Shown: positions 3,099-40,128 of the stretch, piece after piece | Numbering within the stretch: position 1 is the first letter of the stretch | Layout: every line of letters begins with the position of its first letter | From: an uncultured Candidatus Peribacteria bacterium | GTDB lineage: Bacteria; Patescibacteriota; Gracilibacteria; UM-FILTER-43-11 | Length of the DNA: 40,128 nt | Reading direction: 5' to 3' | Assembly: GCA_964448005.1 (NCBI GenBank) | Contig: CAYUUW010000010.1 | Span: forward strand, 1-40,128 | Notes under the pieces: generated by a model | Databases searched by the model: none | What the model saw: the letters and a program-made list of their open reading frames with translations, nothing else | Told to the model about the DNA's origin: nothing | Translations under genes and position numbers: made by a program

Positions 3099-4196
3099 AT
3101 GGTCAACCCTGCTGAGGCCTACACCCCAGAGGAAAGAAGCCAGGCCCGAGAGACTCTGGACCATTTTCGTTGGCAGCTCCTGGCTTTTTTTGCCGATCGC
3201 CACGGAAAAATGCTGGAAGGCGGAGCGGAGCAGCTGGGGGAGGTGAGGGGCGAGCTGCAGAGGCTCTTCGATCTGTCGCCTTTCGCGGCCTACCTCATCC
3301 CCATGACAGAGGATTTCAACCTTTCTTTTCGCCCGGGGGCTGGCACGGAGGAGGATGAGGCTGGGTCAATCGAAGAGCCATCCTCATTCGATTGTTTCCA
3401 GTCCCCGGTACAGGCGCTGAAGGATCTGCAGCAAGAAGCCTCCTTCCCCCACCTTGATTTGACGGACGACGGAATGCTGAATGCGATGGTTCACAGGGGG
3501 GAGGAGTTTGTTCCTGACGCATTGTCCTTTGCGGACGAAGTTGCCAAATTCAGGGCTTCCATTCTGCTGATGAGAATAAGGGGCGAGTATGATGCCAAGA
3601 AAGTAAAAAGGCTGCTGGCCCATGTTTTGTCGGACTTCTTCAGGCGCTATGGGGTAGGGCCCCCCTTTCAATGGCAAACTCGCCAGCCACCTGCCGGACA
3701 CGCTTTTTTGGAGGGTCTTTTTCAGCGGTTGAGAGAGGAACTTGACTCTCCCTCCTCTGAATTGGGCTCTGTCGACGATTTGGATGATGAGTGCGAAGAA
3801 AAAGCCCTTTTGAATCACTTGGAATCAAATTTTTTGGATCTGGGCGCTTTTTTAAAGCTTTTGATGGGGGATGCTGACCAAATGCTTCAGGAAGAAGAGT
3901 GGTTGCCCGTCCTCACTGCTTGGGCTTTGCGATCATTCCTTCGGGGGCGGAAAGCTGGGCCTCTTTCAGCTTCAGCTCCTGCAGGGCCTTTTCCAGAATT
4001 CCCCTCACTTCCTCGGCTCCATTGGCCTGCATCAGCTGCATCCGCACCTCCTTGGCGCCGTCGAATCCTCGGCAGTACCAGGCCAGATGCTTGCGCATGG
4101 CGAAGAAGGCGTGGGTCATGTGCTTCTCCTCGAAGAGCTGCGAATGCTCCACGGCGGCTGCAAAGCGCTCCTCGATGCTTGGCTCGTGGCCGCTGA
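3099..4196 (+). CDS. Hypothetical acidic protein; the last ~94 codons overlap the convergent dus gene and look like antisense read-through
   Basis: Part of ORF 2988..4196; the first plausible ATG is at 3099 (MVNPAEAYTPEE...). No domain recognised. Composition turns R/A/P-rich after about 3910. Confidence 0.45.
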   Translation: MVNPAEAYTPEERSQARETLDHFRWQLLAFFADRHGKMLEGGAEQLGEVRGELQRLFDLSPFAAYLIPMTEDFNLSFRPGAGTEEDEAGSIEEPSSFDCFQSPVQALKDLQQEASFPHLDLTDDGMLNAMVHRGEEFVPDALSFADEVAKFRASILLMRIRGEYDAKKVKRLLAHVLSDFFRRYGVGPPFQWQTRQPPAGHAFLEGLFQRLREELDSPSSELGSVDDLDDECEEKALLNHLESNFLDLGAFLKLLMGDADQMLQEEEWLPVLTAWALRSFLRGRKAGPLSASAPAGPFPEFPSLPRLHWPASAASAPPWRRRILGSTRPDACAWRRRRGSCASPRRAANAPRRLQSAPRCLARGR

Positions 4197-5013
4197 AGAG
4201 CCAGGGGTTGCCGAAGGTGGCCCGGCCGATCAGCACGCCGTCCACGCCGTATTTTTCGATCCTCTCGCGCGCATCCGCCAATGAGGTCACATCGCCATTG
4301 CCCAAAAGCGTCACGCCCGCTTGGCGGCAGAGCCGGGCAGCCTTGGCGATCTCGTCCCAATCCGCCTGGCCCAGGTACATCTGCTTCAGGGTGCGTCCAT
4401 GCAGGCTCAGATTGGCGGGATGCTCTTCCAGCAGGGTGCCGATCCACCATTCGGTGACAGGGCTGTCGTAGCCGATGCGGGTTTTGACGGAAATCGGCAA
4501 GTGGTTCCGAGGCCCTTCCTCGGGCCTCATTAGCTTGAGATGGTTGATGACCTTGGGGCGAAGCTCCGCCTCTTCCAGCGTGATTCCGTTGGCCCAGTCC
4601 TGGGCCGCCTTTTGCGTCGCGTGGATGATCTGCCTGGCCCGATCGGGCAGGCGAATGAGCCCGGCGCCGGAGCCCCGGCGCGCCACCTTGTTGGCGGGGC
4701 ATCCCATGTTGATGTCGATTCCGTCGAAGCCCAAATGGCACACCATCAGAGCCACCTGGTAGAAGGATTCTGGCTCCACGCCGTAGATCTGCGCCACGCA
4801 GGGCCGTTCGATCTCGTCGTACTTGAAAGCTTCCAGCATGCTCACGGCGCCGCGCGCCAAGCCTTCCACGTTCGTGAATTCGGTCATCACCACGCTGGGC
4901 TTGCCGTGCTTGCTGCTCATGTAGCGGAAAGCCGCGTCGGTCACGCCGTCCATGGGGGAAAGGCCGATGATGGGGCGAGGGAGGGTTTCCCAGAAGCCTT
5001 TGGGGGGAGTCAC
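3913..5013 (-). CDS. dus: tRNA-dihydrouridine synthase (Dus family, FMN TIM barrel)
   Basis: The 366-aa ORF has LSPMDGVTDAAFR, FDGIDINMGCPANKV, SVKTRIGY and LSLHGRT, as in the Dus family. The start codon appears to be GTG at 5013-5011. Confidence 0.88.
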   Translation of the reverse strand: MTPPKGFWETLPRPIIGLSPMDGVTDAAFRYMSSKHGKPSVVMTEFTNVEGLARGAVSMLEAFKYDEIERPCVAQIYGVEPESFYQVALMVCHLGFDGIDINMGCPANKVARRGSGAGLIRLPDRARQIIHATQKAAQDWANGITLEEAELRPKVINHLKLMRPEEGPRNHLPISVKTRIGYDSPVTEWWIGTLLEEHPANLSLHGRTLKQMYLGQADWDEIAKAARLCRQAGVTLLGNGDVTSLADARERIEKYGVDGVLIGRATFGNPWLFSGHEPSIEERFAAAVEHSQLFEEKHMTHAFFAMRKHLAWYCRGFDGAKEVRMQLMQANGAEEVRGILEKALQELKLKEAQLSAPEGMIAKPKQ

Positions 5014-5076
5014 TATTTTTTTAGTTAAAAATTACGAATTAAGAATTAGCAATTTCCAAGCAAAGGTCCATTTTCC

Positions 5077-21448: not shown

Positions 21449-21523
21449 GCGCCCATAGCTTAACGGATAAAGTCCCGGTCTTCGGAACCGGTTATGGGGG
21501 TTCGATTCCCTCTGGGCGCACCA
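21449..21523 (+). tRNA. tRNA-Arg (anticodon TCG), CCA encoded
   Basis: Hand-folded cloverleaf: acceptor gcgccca/tgggcgc, anticodon stem ccggt/accgg with loop cTTCGga, and T arm ggggg-ttcgatt-ccctc. Confidence 0.9.
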
Positions 21524-21534
21524 TCAAAAACCAC

Positions 21535-21612
21535 GGGCGGGTAGCTCAGTTTGGCTAGAGCGCAGCATTCGCATTGCTGAGGTCGAGGGTTCGAGTCCCT
21601 TCCGGTCCACCA
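21535..21612 (+). tRNA. tRNA-Ala (anticodon CGC), CCA encoded
   Basis: Hand-folded: D arm gctc/gagc, anticodon stem cagca/tgctg with loop ttCGCat, and T arm gaggg-ttcgagt-ccctt. The G3:U70 alanine identity pair is present. There is one G5-G68 acceptor mismatch. Confidence 0.85.
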
Positions 21613-31559: not shown

Positions 31560-32990
31560 ATGATTTACGAAACCGTCATCGGCCTGGAAGTGCATTGCCG
31601 GCTGAAAACCAAAAGCAAGCTGTTCTGCCGCTGCGCCAACGAAGGGGTGGCCGACGAAGCCCCCAACAGCCGCGTCTGCCCCATCTGCATGGGCTTTCCC
31701 GGCATGCTGCCTTTGATGAACCAGGCGGCTGTGGAGAAGGGGGTGCAGGCGGCTTTGGCCTTGGGCTGCACAATTCCGGAATTCTCGAAGATGGACCGCA
31801 AGAGCTACTTCTACCCCGATCTGCCCATGGGCTACCAGATCTCGCAGTACGATCTGCCCGTGTCGCAGAAGGGGGCGGTGAGCATCACGCTGTCCGACGG
31901 ATCCGAGAAAGCCATCGGCGTGACCCGGCTGCACCTGGAGAACGACGCAGGCAAGCTGACGCACGGCGCCAATGGAACCCTCGTCGATTACAACCGGGGC
32001 GGCGTTCCCCTGATGGAGATTGTGAGCGAGCCGGATCTGCGCACGCCCGAGGAGGCGGTGGAATACGCCCGCCAGCTGCAGAAGATCGTGCGCTACGTGG
32101 GGGCGAGCGATGCGGACATGGAAAAGGGGCAGATGCGCTTCGACCTGAACCTTTCCCTGCGCCCTGTGGGCCAGGCGGCCTTCGGCACCCGCTCGGAAGT
32201 CAAGAACCTCAATTCCTTCCGCTCGCTGCAGAAGGCTGCGGAGTACGAGATCAGGCGCCAGACGGAGCTGCTGGAGAAGGGCGAGAAGATCGTTCAGGAA
32301 ACCCGCGGCTGGGACGACGAAAAAGAGATCACCGTGTCGCAGCGCAGCAAGGAGGAGGCGGCCGACTACCGCTACTTTCCCGAGCCGGATCTGCCTCCTT
32401 TGCGGATGACGAAGGAGATGGTGGAGGCGCTGCGCGCCCAGCTTCCCGAGCTGCCCGAGGCCAAAGCGAAGCGCTACCAAAGCGAGTTGGGCCTGCCTGC
32501 GGCCGATGCGCGCCAGATCGCGGAGGACCGGGCCTTGGCCGAGTACTACGAGGCGGCGCTGGCGACATCCGGCGAGGCGAAGAAGACGGCGAACTGGCTG
32601 CTGAGCGAGCTACTGGCCCTGCTGAAGCCGGAGGGGCTGACGATCGAGCAATCGAAGCTCTCTGCTCCGAACTTGGGCAAATTGGTCAAATTGATTGAAT
32701 CCGGCGCGATCACGGGCAGGATCGCCAAGGACCTTTTCCCCGAGCTTTACGCGGGGGATCTGAATCCGGAGAAGCTGGTGGAGGAGAGGGGACTTACGGT
32801 GATGGAAGATGCCGGCGCCTTGGAGGCGATCTGCCGCCAGGTGATCGAGCGCAATCCGCAGATCGTGGCGGACTTCAAGGCCGGCAAGGAAAAGGCCTTG
32901 GGCGGCTTGGTGGGTCAGGTGATGGCGGCGACGAAGGGGGCGGCGAATCCGGGGAAAGTGAATGAGGTGTTGAGGGAATTGCTTCGGTAA
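31560..32990 (+). CDS. gatB: Asp/Glu-tRNA(Asn/Gln) amidotransferase subunit B
   Basis: MIYETVIGLEVHCRLKTKSKLFCRC, CPICMGFPGMLP, DRKSYFYPDLPMGYQISQ, VTRLHLENDAGK, and the C-terminal YqeY-like tail. Confidence 0.93.
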   Translation: MIYETVIGLEVHCRLKTKSKLFCRCANEGVADEAPNSRVCPICMGFPGMLPLMNQAAVEKGVQAALALGCTIPEFSKMDRKSYFYPDLPMGYQISQYDLPVSQKGAVSITLSDGSEKAIGVTRLHLENDAGKLTHGANGTLVDYNRGGVPLMEIVSEPDLRTPEEAVEYARQLQKIVRYVGASDADMEKGQMRFDLNLSLRPVGQAAFGTRSEVKNLNSFRSLQKAAEYEIRRQTELLEKGEKIVQETRGWDDEKEITVSQRSKEEAADYRYFPEPDLPPLRMTKEMVEALRAQLPELPEAKAKRYQSELGLPAADARQIAEDRALAEYYEAALATSGEAKKTANWLLSELLALLKPEGLTIEQSKLSAPNLGKLVKLIESGAITGRIAKDLFPELYAGDLNPEKLVEERGLTVMEDAGALEAICRQVIERNPQIVADFKAGKEKALGGLVGQVMAATKGAANPGKVNEVLRELLR

Positions 32991-33002
32991 GGATTGTTTT
33001 AA

Positions 33003-34011
33003 AGAATGCTTGTTATGGGAAACAATAAAAATCTCATCATCTATCAGGCTAAAACCGGAGCCATTGAGCTTAAGGGTGATTTTAAAAAAGAGACGGTATG
33101 GGCTAATTTGAATCAAATTGCTCAGCTTTTTGATACTGATAAATCAGGTATATCTAGGCATATCAAGAACATTTTTAAAATCAAAGAACTTAAACAAAAA
33201 TCAAGTGTTGCAATTTTTGCAACAGTTCAAAAGGAAGGTGGTAAGCAAGTGAAGCGCGATATAGAATACTATAATTTAGACATGATTCTTTCCGTTGGCT
33301 ATAGGGTGAATAGTAAAAAAGCAACTTCATTCCGCCAATGGGCGACTAAAACTTTGCGTTCCCACCTCATTCAGGGCTATACCATTAATCGCTCTCAAAT
33401 TGGCAGGAACTACGAGAAATTTATGAAGGCCGTGGCAGAAGTTAAGTTGCTTTTGCCTCCTTCGGACTTGGTCGACGCCAACGATGCCCTTGAACTGGCT
33501 CAGCTTTTCGCCAATACGTGGTTTTCTCTGGATGCTTATGATAGGTCCACTTTTCCCGTAAAAGGATTGATGAAAAAGGAAGTTGATTTTACTGCCAATC
33601 AGCTTGCTCAAGCTTTGGCTGAGCTTAAAAAGGGGCTCATGGCCAAAAAGGAGGCTTCGGGGCTTTTCGGTTCCGAGCGGGGTGGTCAGAGCTTGGCGGG
33701 GATTGTGGGGAATGTTTTTCAGTCTTTTGAGGGTGAGGATTTATATGTGACGATTGAAGAGAAGGCAGCTCATTTGCTTTACTTCATTGTTAAAAACCAT
33801 CCTTTTGTGGATGGAAACAAGCGTTCCGGGGCTTTTGCCTTTGTTTGGTTTTTGAATCGGAGTGGAATTCTGGAGAAAGAGAAAATGAACCCCGTTGCCC
33901 TCACTGTGTTGACTTTGCTGGTGGCAGAGAGTGATCCAAAGGAAAAGGATAGAATTATTGGATTGATTTTATTGCTTCTGAGATAGGCGATCTTAAAAAA
34001 TGATCAGGGGG
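33003..34011 (+). mobile_element. Putative inserted single-gene cassette (RhuM-Fic/Doc) bounded by duplicated gatB 3' ends; no recombinase
   Basis: See the direct repeats 32943-33002 and 34012-34071. The interior has visibly lower GC. Confidence 0.45.
33006..33986 (+). CDS. RhuM-family N-terminal domain fused to a Fic/Doc (death-on-curing type) domain
   Basis: RhuM block: ETVWANLNQIAQLF...ISRHIKNIF...YYNLDMILSVGYRVNSKKATSFRQWATKTLRSHLIQGY. Doc-type Fic motif: HPFVDGNKRSGAFAF. Confidence 0.85.
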   Translation: MLVMGNNKNLIIYQAKTGAIELKGDFKKETVWANLNQIAQLFDTDKSGISRHIKNIFKIKELKQKSSVAIFATVQKEGGKQVKRDIEYYNLDMILSVGYRVNSKKATSFRQWATKTLRSHLIQGYTINRSQIGRNYEKFMKAVAEVKLLLPPSDLVDANDALELAQLFANTWFSLDAYDRSTFPVKGLMKKEVDFTANQLAQALAELKKGLMAKKEASGLFGSERGGQSLAGIVGNVFQSFEGEDLYVTIEEKAAHLLYFIVKNHPFVDGNKRSGAFAFVWFLNRSGILEKEKMNPVALTVLTLLVAESDPKEKDRIIGLILLLLR

Positions 34012-34059
34012 GCGAATCCGGGGGAGCTGAATGAGATTTTGAGGGGGATGTTGGGGTAG
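34012..34059 (+). pseudogene. Relic copy of the gatB 3' end (ANPGELNEILRGMLG*)
   Basis: It is gap-free and 36/48 nt identical to 32943-32990 (ANPGKVNEVLRELLR*). The phase is the same and the stop falls at the equivalent codon. Confidence 0.6.
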
Positions 34060-34096
34060 GGGAGTTTTATTGATTTTACTATTTTAACAATTAACT

Positions 34097-34594
34097 ATGG
34101 AAAAAGAATATTTTGAGTACAAAAAAGAGTATTGGAAAGAAGAGCTTTTCAGATCCTCTGATAAGGCAAATTTTCATTCACACAATTTTTGCAATACCCA
34201 AGCAAATTTAGCCTCGATAGTGATAGGATTCCTCTCATTCAGTATTTATTTTGATGTAGGGGTTTTTTCCGACACAAAAATATTGATATTTCTGACCTAT
34301 ATGTCTGCATTTTTGTCCTTAGCATTTGGTTTGTTTAATTTCGGCCTCAAGCGTAGATTTTGGTCTGATTCTACTGATAAAATTCAGAAAATTAATGGAG
34401 AGTATCTTAAATTCTTAAAAACAAAAAAGGATGATACGAAGCAGGAGGACTACAGATGTTTATTTGAAAAAGAGAAATTGATTTTAGGTGAGAAGAAAGT
34501 CTCGTCAAATTCTTGGGCATGGATATCACAAAGTATTTTTTTGGCAGTAAGTTTTTTACTTTTTATTCTAGTTTCATGGAAAGCGGCATTCTGA
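34097..34594 (+). CDS. Hypothetical 3-TM membrane protein, low GC
   Basis: 165 aa. Hydrophobic segments lie at ~37-57, 64-88 and 141-162, with a K/E-rich loop between. No domain recognised. Confidence 0.55.
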   Translation: MEKEYFEYKKEYWKEELFRSSDKANFHSHNFCNTQANLASIVIGFLSFSIYFDVGVFSDTKILIFLTYMSAFLSLAFGLFNFGLKRRFWSDSTDKIQKINGEYLKFLKTKKDDTKQEDYRCLFEKEKLILGEKKVSSNSWAWISQSIFLAVSFLLFILVSWKAAF

Positions 34595-34637
34595 GCTGGG
34601 GCAGATCTTTAATCTGTTTCAGCATCCTCACGGCTGC

Positions 34638-34927
34638 CATGGACTCCGGATCGGGTCCGGAGTGACGGAGGGGGAGGGCATGGACTCCGGCCCTGCCTAC
34701 CGTCGCCGGAATGACGGCCATTCATCCAGCAAACCATCCGTCATTCCGTGCCACGACACGGAATCCACCTGTCCCTCCAATTCACCTTTTAGACTGTGGC
34801 AGATCTGCCTCCCGCCGCCACCCATGGACTCCGGATCGGGTCCGAAGTGACGCTCCCCACCCGTCATTCCGTGCTACGACACGGAATCCACCTACCCCTC
34901 TATCATTCCGGCGAAAGCCGGGATCCA
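34638..34927. repeat. Pile-up of six hairpin-family elements upstream of the GIY-YIG gene
   Basis: The elements lie at 34638-34668(-), 34679-34717(-), 34738-34769(+), 34823-34852(-), 34861-34892(+) and 34902-34927(+). The consensus is CCGTCAYTCCG-loop-CGGARTCCA. Confidence 0.8.
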
Positions 34928-35266
34928 TACCAAAACAGTCATCATGAAGCAGCCCTGCGTTTACATTCTGGCTAGCCAGCCGCAGGGCACCTTGTACATC
35001 GGCGTCACGAGCGACCTGATGAAAAGGGTGCATGAGCACAAGCAGAAGCTCGTGGAGGGGTTCACTAAAAAATACAATGTAGATCGACTCGTCTATTTTG
35101 AGCTCCATGAGGATATGCCTTCGGCCATTGAGCGTGAGAAGCATTTGAAGGAGTGGAAAAGGCGATGGAAGATCGAACTCATAGAAAAGGAGAATCCCCT
35201 TTGGACCGATCTGTATGAGAGTCTGCTGGAGTGAAAAGCGTGGATTCCGGCTTTCGCCGGAATGAC
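34902..35266 (+). mobile_element. Putative 365-bp unit: a GIY-YIG gene bracketed by 26-nt inverted hairpin elements
   Basis: atcattccggcgaaagccgggatcca at 34902-34927 matches the reverse complement of 35241-35266 (gtcattccggcgaaagccggaatcca) at 24/26 positions. The repeats lie 16 nt before the ATG and 6 nt after the stop. Confidence 0.45.
34944..35234 (+). CDS. GIY-YIG nuclease superfamily protein (UPF0213/YhbQ-like, COG2827 type)
   Basis: CVYILASQPQGTLYIGVTSDLMKRVHEHK...VYFELHEDMPSAIEREKHLKEWKRRWK. Confidence 0.88.
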   Translation: MKQPCVYILASQPQGTLYIGVTSDLMKRVHEHKQKLVEGFTKKYNVDRLVYFELHEDMPSAIEREKHLKEWKRRWKIELIEKENPLWTDLYESLLE

Positions 35267-35461: not shown

Positions 35462-36895
35462 TTAGGGGCACATCATTCCTCCATCGTCGATGCTCCACAA
35501 ATGGGCAGTGATCAGGCTGCTCCGATCCGGTTCGCTCTTGCAGTAGGTGGAATCGCCTCCGTGGAAGGGGACCTTGGGCTGCACGGCCTGGGCGTTCCAT
35601 CCTGCCAAAAGGGAATCGTAATTCGGGGTGGAAAGGCGGGCACCTGTAAACATATCCGTCATATCGGTGACGGAAGCTATATTCCAATTGCCGATATTCT
35701 GGTCGAAATCGATGGCATCGGCGAACATGAAGTGCATGTCGGTCACTTTGCTGACGTCCCAGCCTCCGATGTCCTGGTTGAAGGGGGTGTCTGCGAACAT
35801 TCCTGTCATATTCGTCACGTTGCTCACGTCCCAATTGCCAAGGTTATGGTTGAAAGGGGTATATGAGAACATGTCGGTCATATTCGTGACATTTCCCACA
35901 TTCCAGCCCCCGATATCCTGATTGAATGCGGCCGCACCCGAAAATATTCCGCTCATGTCTGTGACGCCGCTAACATCCCAATTGCCAATGGCTTGATTGA
36001 AGGCGGTGTTTTGGGCGAACATTCCCCTCATTTCTTTCACATTGCCTACATCCCAGCTGCCGATCTTCTGGTTGAAAGCAGTATTATGAGCGAGCATGTA
36101 GGACATATCTGTTACGTTTCCTACATCCCAGCTGCCGATGTCTTCGTTGAAAAGGGTCGATGAAAACATTCCGAACATATTTTTCACACCACTCACATCC
36201 CAGTTGCTTATTTTCTGGTTGAACGCATTGTTACCAGCAAACATATCACTCATGCTTGCCACCTTGCTCACATCCCAACTGCTGATGTCTTGGTTGAAGA
36301 AGGGGGTCGCTGCGAACAGGGCGCTCATGTCCGTCACCTTGCCCACATCCCAACCGCTGATGTCTTGGTTTAAGGAGGTTTCCGCGAACATGGCGCTCAT
36401 GTCCGTGACATGCGAAAGGTTGGGGCTGTCGGTGGCGTTGAGGGTCATGTTGTACGCTCCACTGAAAGCGCGAGCCATAGAAGTCCATGGGCTCTTGCCC
36501 CATTGCTCCACACTAAGCAGCTTTCCGCCTTCCGCCGTATAGGCAAAATAGATTCGCGGAAAAGTGCCGGAGATAGAGATGTTATAGGTTCCTGGCCCAG
36601 CGTAGTCACACGTGTAATCCCCGATTTGGTGGGTTGCTTCATGGATACCGTCGCTGTCGCAATCGACGCTGTAGTCGTAGACCTCCCCTGGAAAGGTGGG
36701 GATGGTGAACTGGTCATTGGCCGAGATTCCGGGATTGTCCGTCTTCGCTTTGATCACGAAATCATTGGGATCGTTCTTCGCGGAGATCGTCAAATCGTTG
36801 GGAGCGTAGGGGGTGCGGGAGGCATGCGCATAATTCATGTCCAAGAATCCTGCCAGCAGGACTAGGGCGGCTAGGGCGAATGAAATTTTCTTCAT
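35462..36895 (-). CDS. BspA-family leucine-rich-repeat surface protein (DUF285 repeats)
   Basis: A signal peptide is followed by about 10 repeats of FNQDIxxWDVSxVTxMxxMF. Confidence 0.85.
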   Translation of the reverse strand: MKKISFALAALVLLAGFLDMNYAHASRTPYAPNDLTISAKNDPNDFVIKAKTDNPGISANDQFTIPTFPGEVYDYSVDCDSDGIHEATHQIGDYTCDYAGPGTYNISISGTFPRIYFAYTAEGGKLLSVEQWGKSPWTSMARAFSGAYNMTLNATDSPNLSHVTDMSAMFAETSLNQDISGWDVGKVTDMSALFAATPFFNQDISSWDVSKVASMSDMFAGNNAFNQKISNWDVSGVKNMFGMFSSTLFNEDIGSWDVGNVTDMSYMLAHNTAFNQKIGSWDVGNVKEMRGMFAQNTAFNQAIGNWDVSGVTDMSGIFSGAAAFNQDIGGWNVGNVTNMTDMFSYTPFNHNLGNWDVSNVTNMTGMFADTPFNQDIGGWDVSKVTDMHFMFADAIDFDQNIGNWNIASVTDMTDMFTGARLSTPNYDSLLAGWNAQAVQPKVPFHGGDSTYCKSEPDRSSLITAHLWSIDDGGMMCP

Positions 36896-37259: not shown

Positions 37260-38129
37260 ATGAAAAAGCGCACTTTTGCAGCCCTCTTTTTTGCTGCCCT
37301 GTTCCTGGCCGCATGCGACTGGAAAAACCCCTTCTCTTCGGAGGAGGCGACCTCGCCGGAGAGTCCCAATCTGAGCCAAAGCAGTGCGGAGGAGGCGGAT
37401 GCTTCCGGCCTGGAAAAAAGAACCGAGGAGGAAGAGGAAAGAATGGTTGCGGCAGCAGAAGGTAAATTTGGCGCCGAGATACGAAGCCTAGACGGCTTTT
37501 ACTATACGGACGGCAAACAGGTCTATTTTGCCTACAGCAGCATGGGGGCCGATGATGAATTGAGGCTGGTGGATGGGGCGGATGCCGGCACGTTTGAGGT
37601 CATTGAAATGGATGGAGATGATTCCTGGATCCGTTTCGGCAAGGACGCGAACTATGTTTATTCGGATGGGGAAAGAATCGAGGGGGTCAGCGGCGAGGAT
37701 TTTGAGTTTCTCGCCGATCCCAACGGAACTCCGCTTTACGCGAAAGACGCGAACAGCGTTTACATGCTGTACGACGATCTGATGGGCGGCGCAGGAAGCC
37801 TGACCCACTTCATTGAGCTGGAGGAGGCGGACCCGGCCACGTTCGAATTCTTCGATCATGAGAACCGGAACAGCGTGAATGCCCGCTACGCCCACGATGA
37901 CAAGCAGGCCTACTTTGGATCCAAGCTGATCGCAGGCGCGGACGGGGAAACCTTTGAGCATGTCCAGTATTCCGTGGCGAAGGACGGCGAGAATGTTTAT
38001 TTCTTGGGGGAAAAGGTGGAAGGCGCCGATCCGGACAGCATCGAGTACGCCCCTGGATCCTGCGACACCTGCTACAAAGACAAGAACGCCGTGTTCGAAT
38101 GCTTCAACACCTGCAAGATCCGGGAATAG
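37260..38129 (+). CDS. DKNYY-repeat lipoprotein
   Basis: Lipobox FLAAC, then repeats DANYVYSDGERIEG, DANSVYMLYD, DDKQAYFGSKLIAGADGETFE, DGENVYFLGEKVEGADPDSIE and DKNAVFE. Confidence 0.8.
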   Translation: MKKRTFAALFFAALFLAACDWKNPFSSEEATSPESPNLSQSSAEEADASGLEKRTEEEEERMVAAAEGKFGAEIRSLDGFYYTDGKQVYFAYSSMGADDELRLVDGADAGTFEVIEMDGDDSWIRFGKDANYVYSDGERIEGVSGEDFEFLADPNGTPLYAKDANSVYMLYDDLMGGAGSLTHFIELEEADPATFEFFDHENRNSVNARYAHDDKQAYFGSKLIAGADGETFEHVQYSVAKDGENVYFLGEKVEGADPDSIEYAPGSCDTCYKDKNAVFECFNTCKIRE

Positions 38130-38174: not shown

Positions 38175-38258
38175 GGACCTCCTCCGGCTCCTCCAAGGGG
38201 GGAGGGTTGCTGTCATTCCGTGCTCCGACCTGCCTGCCGGCAGGCAGGCACGGAATCC
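38175..38258. repeat. Composite repeat (GGACCTCCTCC...GGAGG module plus GTCATTCCGTGC-palindrome-GCACGGAATCC hairpin), left of the ORF6N gene
   Basis: 38210-38248 is 38/39 identical to 39101-39139. The inner perfect palindrome is ctgcctgccggcaggcag. Confidence 0.8.
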
Positions 38259-38273
38259 ATCCAATCTTCTAAG

Positions 38274-38305: not shown

Positions 38306-38397
38306 CTGGCCGAGATAGCCGACTATCTCTTGGTTTTTTTAAAATCACTTGATAAGTAAACTTTTGTTTACTAGAATGAGTAGGAAATTGGAATTTG

Positions 38398-38964
38398 ATG
38401 AATAGCAGCATGAAAAAGGAATCTGTGCCCATGACTATTTTTCCTGAAAAAATTCAGGATTTCATTTATGTCATTCGTGATCAGCGAGTGATTTTGGATA
38501 AAGATCTCGCGAAGCTGTATGGCGTGGAAACCAGGAGGCTGAACGAGCAGGTAAAAAGGAATATCGACCGATTCCCGGAGGATTTTATGTTTCAGCTAAC
38601 AGAGAAGGAGGTTGCTTTAAGATCGCAAATTGCGACCTTAAAGAAAAGGCGTGGTGAACATCGTAAATACTTGCCCTTTGCTTTTACTGAGCATGGTGCC
38701 ATCATGGCCGCCAATTTGCTCAGGAGTCCTCAGGCGATCTCGGTAAGTATTCAGGTTGTCCGTACTTTTATCGAACTCCGCAAATGGACCCAATCCCATC
38801 AGGCGCTTATTGAGGAAGTAGACTCACTCAAAAATTTTGTGCTCAAAAATTCACAAACAAGCAGCCAAGAATTCAGGAAGGTCTGGAGGGCGATCGAGAA
38901 ATTGATGGTTCCTGAACCCAAACCAGAGGAAAGGCGAATTGGATTTAGGCTGGAAGGGGATTGA
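38398..38964 (+). CDS. ORF6N (KilA-N-related) domain DNA-binding protein
   Basis: IRDQRVILDKDLAKLYGVETRRLNEQVKRNIDRFPEDFMFQLTEKE...RKYLPFAFTEHGAIMAANLL. Alternative starts lie at 38395, 38410 and 38431. Confidence 0.8.
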   Translation: MNSSMKKESVPMTIFPEKIQDFIYVIRDQRVILDKDLAKLYGVETRRLNEQVKRNIDRFPEDFMFQLTEKEVALRSQIATLKKRRGEHRKYLPFAFTEHGAIMAANLLRSPQAISVSIQVVRTFIELRKWTQSHQALIEEVDSLKNFVLKNSQTSSQEFRKVWRAIEKLMVPEPKPEERRIGFRLEGD

Positions 38965-38987: not shown

Positions 38988-39186
38988 GGACCTCCTCCCG
39001 GCCTCCTCCAAAGGAGGAGGGGAAATGCAAAATACAGATCCCCCCTGCCCCCCCCTTTCGCAAGGGGGGTGTCGTTGCCAATCACAGGTCTTCTCCCACT
39101 CCGTCATTCCGTGCTCCGACCTGCCTGCCGGCAGGCAGGCTCCTCCAAAGGAGGAGGGGTGCTGTCATTTCGGCGAAAGCATTAAT
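38988..39186. repeat. Composite repeat block right of the ORF6N gene
   Basis: ggacctcctcccggcctcctccaaaggaggagggg lies at 38988-39022, and the hairpin cccccc-tttcgcaa-gggggg at about 39051-39070. ccgtcattccgtgctccgacctgcctgccggcaggcagg lies at 39101-39139, ctcctccaaaggaggagggg at 39140-39159, and gtcatttcggcgaaagc at 39164-39180. Confidence 0.8.
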
Positions 39187-39224
39187 TCAGGTGGTACTAA
39201 GCCACAGACTCATCTAACCCTGAA

Positions 39225-40043
39225 TCAGGGGATATGTCCTGCGGGCAGATCGGCCACAGCTTCTGGGATCAATTCCTCAGCTTCTTTCTCCATTAATTTA
39301 TCAATACGATATATCGCCTTCATGTTTCCTTTGTAATCTTCAATTGCCTTTTTATCCTTGAAATATTTGAAAGAAATTCCTTCATGTTTCCATAGGGCCC
39401 TATGGTAATTTTTCATTAATTTCAAATTGTAGATTTTGGCTTGGAAAATTTCTTTGATTTTTTCTTTTTCCATCGAATCCAGTAAATTTTCTACTATATT
39501 AGAGAACCCAGCTAGATTTTCGGAATGAGATTTTTGTTGATTCATGGGGGGCATTTTTTCCGCAAATGCCTCGTTTCTTCTGAGTAGATTTTCGAATTCA
39601 ACTTTAAACTGTTCGAATGTTCTATTTGCCCATCTAATTGTATGGTCGATAATCAAAATCTTATTGTGTAAGTAATAGCTCCCAAATTTCATTTTCGTTA
39701 ATCCTGTATCGAATTGAATAGTTGTAGTTATTGGAGAGTTGGTGTAATTCAAAACGAACACTCTGGGATCATTGGTTGACTTAACTTCTTCAATTAAGAT
39801 TTTTACCCTTTTTATAAACTCCCTCCATTCTTTTATGGATAAAGAAAGGTCGTTTAGAGTTTGTGAAAAAGCAATTTCTGCTCTTCTTATTGCTTCCTTC
39901 CTATCGTTCCTTCTTTGAAAAAGACCTTTTATAAGAAAGCCTATTGCAGAAAGAGTTATTGCTAAAAATGGACCTAAGGCTGAGCAAATTAGGGTTTGCC
40001 ACCTTTCTATAAAGGCGGTAGTTGTTGTTGATATCGATATCAT
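39225..40043 (-). CDS. Hypothetical N-terminally anchored protein, low GC
   Basis: 272-aa ORF with a TM segment at ~18-40, then K/E-rich helical sequence. No domain recognised. Confidence 0.55.
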   Translation of the reverse strand: MISISTTTTAFIERWQTLICSALGPFLAITLSAIGFLIKGLFQRRNDRKEAIRRAEIAFSQTLNDLSLSIKEWREFIKRVKILIEEVKSTNDPRVFVLNYTNSPITTTIQFDTGLTKMKFGSYYLHNKILIIDHTIRWANRTFEQFKVEFENLLRRNEAFAEKMPPMNQQKSHSENLAGFSNIVENLLDSMEKEKIKEIFQAKIYNLKLMKNYHRALWKHEGISFKYFKDKKAIEDYKGNMKAIYRIDKLMEKEAEELIPEAVADLPAGHIP

Positions 40044-40109: not shown

Positions 40110-40128
40110 CTACATCATCCCTCCCATG
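40110..40128 (-). CDS. Last 5 codons of a gene entering from the right edge (...MGGMM*), a tail typical of GroEL
   Basis: The reverse complement of the window end reads atg gga ggg atg atg tag. A terminator follows on the minus strand. Only 5 codons are visible, so the identification is weak. Confidence 0.3.

Follow-up and report, generated by a model that had tools for sequence, protein, structure and literature searches.

The window analysed here, a stretch of 40,128 nucleotides from an uncultured Candidatus Peribacteria bacterium (contig CAYUUW010000010.1), carries on its forward strand an intact gatB gene (31560-32990, 476 amino acids). Between the last codons of this gene and a stranded copy of them lies ~1,069 bp of foreign DNA that contains one gene, a fusion of a RhuM domain and a Doc-type Fic domain, termed RhuM-Fic herein. 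An earlier note on this DNA, made from the letters of the sequence, had read the arrangement as the scar of an insertion into the 3' end of an essential gene that brought a replacement end with it. The present analysis follows up that note by asking which of the two gatB ends is native, how the insert might have arrived and whether it belongs to any known class of element.

The gatB product is full length by every profile applied to it. It is recognised by the NCBIfam GatB equivalog NF004012 at 648 bits (cut-off 338; 8e-195), and it matches both Pfam domains of the family from end to end: GatB_N over profile positions 1-277 of 277 (1.8e-116) and GatB_Yqey over positions 1-148 of 148, the latter match ending at residue 475 of 476, so that the C-terminal GatB/YqeY domain is complete. 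The last 48 nt of this gene (32943-32990, encoding ANPGKVNEVLRELLR and the stop) are identical at 36 of 48 positions to 34012-34059 (encoding ANPGELNEILRGMLG and a stop). The two align without gaps, are read in the same phase and stop at the equivalent codon, whereas the next-best 48-mer on either strand of the window reaches 27 of 48. A repeat search extends the pair to a 55-nt direct repeat, 76% identical, with an attachment site (att) L-like copy 1 at 32938-32992 that ends the functional gatB and an attR-like copy 2 at 34007-34061, both on the forward strand and spaced 1069 nt from start to start. The longest exact words common to the two copies are a 13-mer, GGCGAATCCGGGG (32942-32954 and 34011-34023), and an octamer, TGAATGAG (32959-32966 and 34028-34035); the present contiguous gatB end, in copy 1, reads ...GTGTTGAGGGAATTGCTTCGGTAA. 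Hence the duplication of the gatB 3' end that the earlier note described stands, but its extension of the similarity for about 12 nt past both stops is weak, as the repeat is supported for just ~2 nt beyond the stop.

A profile of GatB C-termini allows the downstream copy to be judged against random peptides, a comparison that the earlier note had named as capable of undoing its reading. A position-specific scoring matrix (PSSM) was built from the C-termini of 117 relatives and scored against the 80,174 six-frame 14-mers of the window. The copy 2 peptide scores +16.1 bits and ranks second of the 80,174, next to the real tail (+29.7), while the third-best peptide scores -11.7 and the mean is -64.7 (standard deviation 9.9), which places copy 2 far above random peptides. 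The right halves of both copies are GatB-like on their own by profile (top 1e-5 to 4e-5 of six-frame peptides), the 6-mer from the end of the present gatB falling within the top 4e-5 of all six-frame 6-mers, and the tail that gatB carries today would thus derive from some gatB.

The same results bear on the possibility that the repeat is a chance resemblance or the product of a chimeric assembly. The window is a contig assembled from a metagenome, and the right halves of the two copies, taken alone, are identical at 15 of 24 positions, near the best random level of 16 of 24. Against this stand the 36 of 48 over the whole tail compared with 27 of 48 elsewhere, the PSSM rank, the common frame and the common stop position. 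In addition, both junctions of RhuM-Fic are reproduced in an independent Logan contig (L001), which shows no difference from the window at any base of 32973-34451, and the longest word shared by the copies, at 13 nt, is too short to mislead an assembler. We regard chance and chimerism as effectively refuted.

The sole gene between the copies, RhuM-Fic (33015-33986, forward strand, 323 amino acids, with an alternative ATG at 33006), has its start codon 15-24 nt behind the gatB stop, and 20 nt separate its end from copy 2. Its product matches Pfam Virulence_RhuM (PF13310) over profile positions 3-69 of 252 at 81.5 bits (gathering cut-off 33.7; 7.7e-23) and Pfam Fic (PF02661) at 51.8 bits (gathering cut-off 24; 1.6e-13), and the Doc-type motif H-x-F-x-(D/N)-(A/G)-N-K-R is present as HPFVDGNKR (in the context HPFVDGNKRSG). 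The two-domain architecture of the RhuM/Fic/DOC family is likewise found above curated cut-offs, residues 1-322 matching positions 1-323 of the 327 in the profile of PDC-S23 (2.6e-111), a single-gene family that PADLOC lists as a defense candidate, and there are further matches to a PHROG Doc-like toxin and, at 6.5e-4, to the death-on-curing protein of PDB entry 9vzc. The family has at least 7,998 homologues, which occur in Candidate Phyla Radiation (CPR) bacteria, Campylobacterota, Chlorobi, Firmicutes and Bacteroidota and also on plasmids, where they are annotated as 'virulence protein RhuM/Fic/DOC family protein'. The names of the sources of the best RhuM-Fic and GatB homologues place the window in a genome of the Peregrinibacteria (Patescibacteria/CPR). 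A link to phages is slight, with just one distant match in IMG/VR and one full-length match among 50,697 phage records.

In composition RhuM-Fic is foreign. Its GC content is 0.416, and 0.435 at third codon positions (GC3), compared with 0.628 and 0.847 for gatB, and the GC content along the window drops from ~0.62 to 0.32-0.48 at the insert. The earlier note was right that a low-GC fusion of RhuM and Doc-type Fic is the only gene between the repeats; the GC comparison that it had proposed agrees with this for the gene itself but shows that the low-GC tract is not confined between the copies, since it continues past copy 2 to ~34600 and takes in a second, unrelated gene (34097-34594). Scans for promoters and terminators between gatB and RhuM-Fic gave nothing above background, and RhuM-Fic is probably transcribed by read-through from gatB, because it begins 15-24 nt after the stop with no promoter-like or terminator-like site in between. 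By family membership, its product is probably the toxin-type effector of a candidate anti-phage system, in which sensing or binding would fall to the N-terminal RhuM/Bro-like module and action on a target to the Doc-type kinase domain. The PDC systems in PADLOC are candidates by genomic association alone, and the name 'PDC-S23' was not found in the literature searched. A RhuM-like domain fused to DOC has been placed among restriction-modification and PrrC-type defense genes (Anantharaman et al., 2013; PMC3710099).

Which of the two gatB tails is native was addressed, along the lines suggested in the earlier note, by alignment to the gatB of the closest relative (L004; 81% amino acid and 74% nucleotide identity), which is not of the same species and has one contiguous, uninterrupted tail; no GatB closer than 81% exists in a collection of 5.8 billion proteins. 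The two copies differ at 12 sites of the 48-nt tail. Copy 1 has the L004 base at sites 13 and 16, copy 2 has it at each of the nine sites from 25 to 48, and at site 15 L004 matches neither; the chance of so clean a left/right partition of the 11 informative sites (two for copy 1, nine for copy 2) is 1 in 55. Over the last 24 nt, copy 2 (34036-34059) matches L004 at 22 of 24 positions, with all eight third codon positions identical to those of the L004 gatB tail, and copy 1 (32967-32990) at 13 of 24, while the 60-80 nt of gatB before 32967 are 82-85% identical to L004. When 32901-32966 is spliced to 34036-34059, the result agrees with L004 2681-2770 at 77 of 90 positions, compared with 68 of 90 for the present contiguous end, and this gain, together with the site mosaic, agrees with the insertion scar and replacement end that the earlier note had put forward. 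At the protein level, the spliced tail regains a nearly invariant Val at tail position 6 and, at position 9, the Ile that is usual there, and Met at position 13 is common to copy 2 and the L004 protein (P0122) and is found in only two of the 117 relatives. The GC3 values differ in the same direction, copy 2 being host-like at 0.81 while 32967-32990 has G or C at five of eight third positions, compared with 0.85 for the whole gene.

This mosaic with respect to L004 supports the view that gatB now ends in 24 foreign nt (32967-32990, VLRELLR and stop), a surrogate tail that would have come with the insert, and that 34036-34059 (ILRGMLG and stop) is the former tail of the gene, now stranded downstream. 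The comparison thus assigns the last 24 nt of the downstream copy as native and those of copy 1 as imported. A longer replaced segment of gatB was considered and rejected, as identity to L004 stays at 82-85% right up to 32966 and falls just in the last 24 nt. Two further features of the copy 2 region are recorded here for completeness: an in-frame ATG in the stranded tail region (34000-34059) gives MIRGANPGELNEILRGMLG and a stop, and 34000-34066 contains five runs of at least four G (G6, G5, G5, G4 and G4) that could form a G-quadruplex, the majority of the differences of copy 2 from copy 1 being changes to G.

Could the two tails have arisen in place, by a long target-site duplication or by a prior small tandem duplication of the gatB end, followed by divergence to 75%? 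A lineage-specific Gly at tail position 4 (ANPG), seen in none of the 117 relatives, is present in both copies, as such an origin would have it, and other RhuM-Fic loci are known with near-identical repeats of 23-92 nt (92 nt at 99% in L029, 43 nt in L157 and 23 nt in L002). Yet it would then be the selected, functional copy that had changed about four times more relative to L004 (~9.5 versus 2.5 substitutions), with the changes clustered in the last 24 nt. The insert shows no amelioration (GC3 of 0.44 versus 0.85), which is hard to fit with the time needed for 25% divergence. We consider an in-situ duplication very improbable.

We propose instead, with moderate confidence, that the segment was inserted by a reciprocal crossover with a mimic of the gatB tail, that the former tail was displaced in the process and that the module is passive, in the manner of the cis-mobilizable elements (CIMEs) discussed below. 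The incoming DNA would have borne a ~55-60-nt mimic of the gatB 3' end, ~75% identical to that of the host, and a single reciprocal exchange of this mimic with the gatB tail of the host would have given a Campbell-style insertion; a mosaic whose two sides differ in their agreement with L004 is the pattern expected from one such event. The likeliest crossover interval is the shared octamer TGAATGAG, where the agreement with L004 switches, and less likely the shared GGCGAATCCGGGG. If the crossover lay in the octamer, the inserted segment would be 32967-34035 (1,069 nt, forward strand), and its layout would be the surrogate tail, a 24-nt spacer, the RhuM-N/Doc gene, a 20-nt spacer and the left arm of the mimic. 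Thus gatB would have kept its own sequence to ~32966 and then taken the eight codons of the insert, leaving the essential gene intact, and the former tail would have come to lie 1,069 nt farther downstream, to the right of the left arm of the insert, so that copy 2 would consist of a left part from the insert (34007-34027) and a right part from the host (34036-34059).

The mosaic favors a reciprocal exchange between two diverged tails, the kind of outcome that a site-specific recombinase gives when it acts on attB and attP. Because the insert encodes no recombinase and none is visible in the 40-kb window, we suggest that the module is passive, either what is left of a larger integrative element after decay or a segment inserted by an enzyme supplied in trans. 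An empty site would read ...CCGGGGAAAGTGAATGAG joined to ATTTTGAGGGGGATGTTGGGGTAGGGGAGTTTTATTG..., and a circle or attP junction would read ...ATGATCAGGGGGGCGAATCCGGGGGAGCTGAATGAG joined to GTGTTGAGGGAATTGCTTCGGTAAGGATTG...; for a site-specific process the junction of the excised circle is written ...GGGGGAGCTGAATGAG joined to GTGTTGAGGGAATTG... A same-species empty site was not found, and a degenerate 30-nt pattern of the former tail had no match in the JGI metagenomes.

Several points weigh against this proposal. The Gly of the ANPG motif in both copies means that the mimic would have come from a very close gatB lineage or that this part of the repeat was homogenised, and either is awkward for a far-off element. 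The assignment of the native tail depends on a single close reference and few informative sites, and the L004 tail is itself compositionally odd, ranking first of 447 for G at third codon positions (G3). To the right of the former tail the DNA is again low in GC, so that the original chromosomal flank is unrecognisable, and RhuM-Fic lies flush with both repeats (spacers of 24 and 20 nt), so that an origin by deletion from a larger element needs a tidy deletion. An inverted-repeat core typical of tyrosine-recombinase sites is not evident in the repeat, the analysis turned up no element that has an integrase and targets the gatB 3' end, and there is no second duplicate of a gatB tail in L004, in four further relatives' gatB loci (L166-L169) or at ~160 other RhuM-Fic loci.

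The main rival dispenses with both a mobile element and a site-specific enzyme and supposes that transforming DNA was recombined in just once, by an illegitimate or homology-facilitated event. In this view, a linear fragment from another member of the Peregrinibacteria, in which RhuM-Fic already followed gatB, would have been joined at its left end through short homology in the gatB tail and at its right end illegitimately, just upstream of the recipient tail, which was thereby kept as a stump. The longest exact matches between the copies, at 13 and 8 nt, are of microhomology size; the window shows no recombinase, the closest cassettes have no conserved sequence outside the open reading frame (ORF), and gatB is not a recurrent target. 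Moreover, other lone low-GC genes lie 13-43 nt after housekeeping genes in Patescibacteria with no repeats around them, which suggests a general, non-specific mode of gene gain. On this account, however, 34007-34027 should be recipient sequence, with no difference from 32938-32958 when the event took place. Instead, three of the four bases that separate the 13-mer from the octamer differ, as do several bases farther upstream, whereas the right part of the same copy is nearly undecayed (22 of 24 relative to L004). The diverged left arm is better explained by reciprocal exchange between two diverged tails, and no donor in which gatB is followed by RhuM-Fic was found. We therefore hold the one-off event to be unlikely, albeit the foremost of the rivals.

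Another possibility arises from the similarity between the gatB 3' ends of the window and L004 at synonymous sites. Over the last ~30 codons (window 32901-32966 plus 34036-34059, L004 2681-2770), identity at third positions is 0.80-0.94, compared with 0.47 (standard deviation 0.14) over the whole gene, and in L004 the same codons are the most atypical and most G3-rich stretch of gatB (0.67 versus a mean of 0.35; rank 1 of 447). These values suggest that lineages have recently exchanged the gatB 3' end or that an earlier element brought in the tail. In the latter case the right half of copy 2 would not be ancestral. It would be a surrogate tail left by an older element at an att site in repeated use, perhaps an element comprising the low-GC islet at 34097-34594 and beyond, with the L004 tail coming from an element of the same type and RhuM-Fic integrating later by tandem accretion. 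Low-GC DNA follows the tail directly in both the window genome and L004, as this account would have it. On the other hand, neither the window nor L004 has a third copy of the tail, no homology links the stretches that follow the two tails, and the synonymous similarity is equally well explained by an increased rate of recombination in core genes beside a hotspot. Tandem accretion appears improbable to us.

What follows the former tail bears on the history of this site. The islet consists of a single gene (ORF165, 34097-34594, forward strand), which encodes a membrane-type protein of 165 amino acids, has a GC content of 32% and is separate from the RhuM-Fic insert. ORF165 has no match in Pfam, PADLOC or PHROG and only six homologues (60-65% identity), all in Patescibacteria. 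At the loci examined, such genes are lone, low in GC (23-32% versus 43-63% for the host) and located 37-43 nt after a gene end with no flanking repeats, the preceding sequence being the stranded gatB tail in the window and housekeeping genes of the YggS-like or Mur ligase type at 42-43 nt in L170 (4755-5246) and L171 (5001-5516). The gene order in relatives is coaE-gatB-[variable gene]-clpP, and the slot after gatB is occupied by an ORF of 73 amino acids in L166, by an acetyltransferase gene 13 nt after the stop in L169 and by low-GC ORFs in L004. The ORF165 islet shows that the 3' flank of gatB is a variable spot, and the case as a whole marks it as such in this clade of the Peregrinibacteria.

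From 33000 to the end of the contig at 40128, all genes look accessory or defense-like. Beyond ORF165 they include a GIY-YIG nuclease gene (34944-35234, 96 amino acids) flanked by 25-nt inverted repeats (34903-34927 and 35241-35265, 96% complementary) that resembles a miniature mobile unit, a DUF285 repeat protein gene on the minus strand with a periodicity of 72-75 nt (35462-36895), a gene for a DKNYY protein (37260-38129), a gene for an ORF6N/anti-repressor-like protein that matches PDC-S05 (38395-38964) and a low-GC ORF of 272 amino acids on the minus strand (39225-40043). Between the accessory genes of this right-hand 7 kb lie GC-rich repeats that resemble repetitive extragenic palindromes (34619-34927, 38186-38271 and 39003-39189), exemplified by GTCATTCCG...CGGAATCCAC units, CATGGACTCCGGATCGGGTCCG, the palindrome CCTGCCTGCCGGCAGGCAGG and CTCCTCCAAAGGAGGAGGGG.

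The earlier note had raised the idea of a toxin gene that moves as a single-gene cassette into gatB, and ~160 further RhuM-Fic loci were fetched for a comparison of their flanks. This comparison does not sustain such a mode. Neither gatB nor a GatB tail is found beside RhuM-Fic at any of the ~160 loci by tblastn and motif searches, and alignments of the three closest cassettes (the window, L002 at 80% and L003 at 67%) show no homology, and hence no shared cassette ends, outside the ORF. Strong direct repeats in 400-nt flanks occur at eight of 100 RhuM-Fic loci, about six of them independent, compared with six of 190 control neighbor genes, an enrichment too unconvincing for flanking repeats to be taken as a hallmark of RhuM-Fic.

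The loci with strong repeats include, besides the window, L029, L157, L032, L162 and L002, and several deserve description in their own right. In L029, from a Firmicutes metagenome-assembled genome (MAG), RhuM-Fic is bracketed by 92-nt direct repeats that are 99% identical (3708-3799 and 4967-5058). The repeats in two other Firmicutes MAGs are duplicated terminator hairpins, with a length of 43 nt in L157 (2820-2862 and 3944-3986) and with neighboring genes bracketed alike in L032 (3689-3745 and 5085-5141), a pattern that suggests arrays of repeat-separated cassettes. In L002, the closest homologue, RhuM-Fic lies 20 nt from a tRNA-Met gene and has on either side an exact 23-nt copy of the 5' part of that tRNA (positions 3-25), with a third partial copy of the tRNA 5' part upstream of the tRNA (L002 659-684, 1857-1933 and 2004-2031); the geometry is unlike a standard att duplication. 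That the closest homologue is likewise bracketed by a fragment of an essential gene is suggestive.

A broader idea builds on such cases, namely that single defense or toxin genes in Patescibacteria travel as minimal, recombinase-less modules that carry a decoy end of a housekeeping gene and enter by short-homology reciprocal recombination. Hints in this direction are the tRNA-Met bracket in L002, the signs that lineages recently exchanged the gatB 3' end and the ORF165-type islets behind housekeeping genes. Entry could be by natural transformation or through a host enzyme, and the essential gene would stay intact while the module borrows its transcription. We judge the idea, for which there is at present one further suggestive locus, to be improbable, but if similar decoy-end modules are common they would represent a route of gene gain in CPR bacteria that is independent of element-encoded recombinases.

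The absence of an integrase, a transposase or a tRNA target, as reported in the earlier note, was borne out. None of 35 window ORFs scanned, which include every ORF from 33000 to the contig end, has a Pfam match to a recombinase or transposase, and the only tRNA genes of the window are at 21449-21612, 11 kb from the insert. Viral contigs yielded no match to GatB and no gatB-linked element. Several classes of element were considered for the insert and rejected. A tRNA-targeting genomic island does not fit the position of the tRNA genes. An insertion sequence or transposon would require terminal inverted repeats and a transposase, neither of which is present, and the flanking repeat is 55 nt long and just 76% identical. 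An integron gene cassette was set aside as there is no inverted repeat at either boundary and folding is unremarkable (33975-34100, z = -0.79; 32925-33015, z = +1.05). A structured RNA, attC site or terminator in the repeat was likewise rejected, as it folds no better than shuffled sequences and no Rfam match comes near the gathering score. Finally, a type II toxin-antitoxin system of the Phd-Doc type is not indicated, since no ORF is present in the 15-24-nt gap after gatB and the TIGR01550 score of 34.6 is below the cut-off of 38.65.

How, then, does the insert compare with known systems? In terms of the gene itself, it has the full-length two-domain architecture and the Doc-type HxFxDGNKR motif of the RhuM/Fic/DOC (PDC-S23) family. 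Members of this family are typically found in restriction-modification neighborhoods and also on plasmids, whereas the window gene stands alone directly behind gatB, and its defense activity is that of a candidate. Phd-Doc modules have the Doc-type Fic catalytic motif in common with it, but here there is no antitoxin gene and the Doc domain is fused to an N-terminal RhuM domain.

Phage 21 and the element e14 insert into icd and supply a substitute gene end. The dusA-specific islands are likewise reported to be integrative elements in a protein-coding gene that they provide with a substitute end (PMC4482086). Elements of the icd and dusA type, like the insert at gatB, restore the target gene with codons that they carry and leave a pseudo-end at the far junction, but they encode their own integrase and extend over tens of kilobases, while the insert described here has one gene and no integrase.

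The closest resemblance is to the CIMEs. We know of no integrative and conjugative element (ICE), integrative and mobilizable element (IME) or phage that targets gatB, and no cognate element of these kinds was found here, which is one difference from the CIMEs; others are that the repeats at gatB are only 75% alike, that the gene fills the element almost fully and that the host belongs to the Patescibacteria (Peregrinibacteria). Common to both are a small piece of foreign, cargo-only DNA with no integrase or transfer genes and direct repeats of the 3' end of a housekeeping gene that stays intact. In streptococci, CIMEs of 1.2-13 kb are located at the 3' ends of rpmG, rpsI, fda and rplL (PMC7563491), and the 1.07-kb insert is near the lower end (1.2 kb) reported for those that carry genes. 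Thus the lack of a recombinase, which the earlier note had regarded as unusual, is not so in itself, since att-flanked elements devoid of an integrase are established at the 3' ends of housekeeping genes (PMC7563491). The direct repeats of the window (32938-32992 and 34007-34061) match the end of the target gene and are mosaic relative to L004, and no gene for recombination, conjugation or mobilization is located between them, RhuM-Fic being the sole ORF, so that the insert resembles a decayed or trans-dependent, att-flanked cargo element. It shows at base resolution how a candidate defense or toxin gene was gained inside an essential gene, which was left undamaged, in the reduced genome of an uncultivated member of the CPR. 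On present evidence, RhuM-Fic at gatB represents a single, well-resolved scar of a known type: the type and the missing recombinase have precedents, and what is new is the target gene, the host clade and the minimal size.

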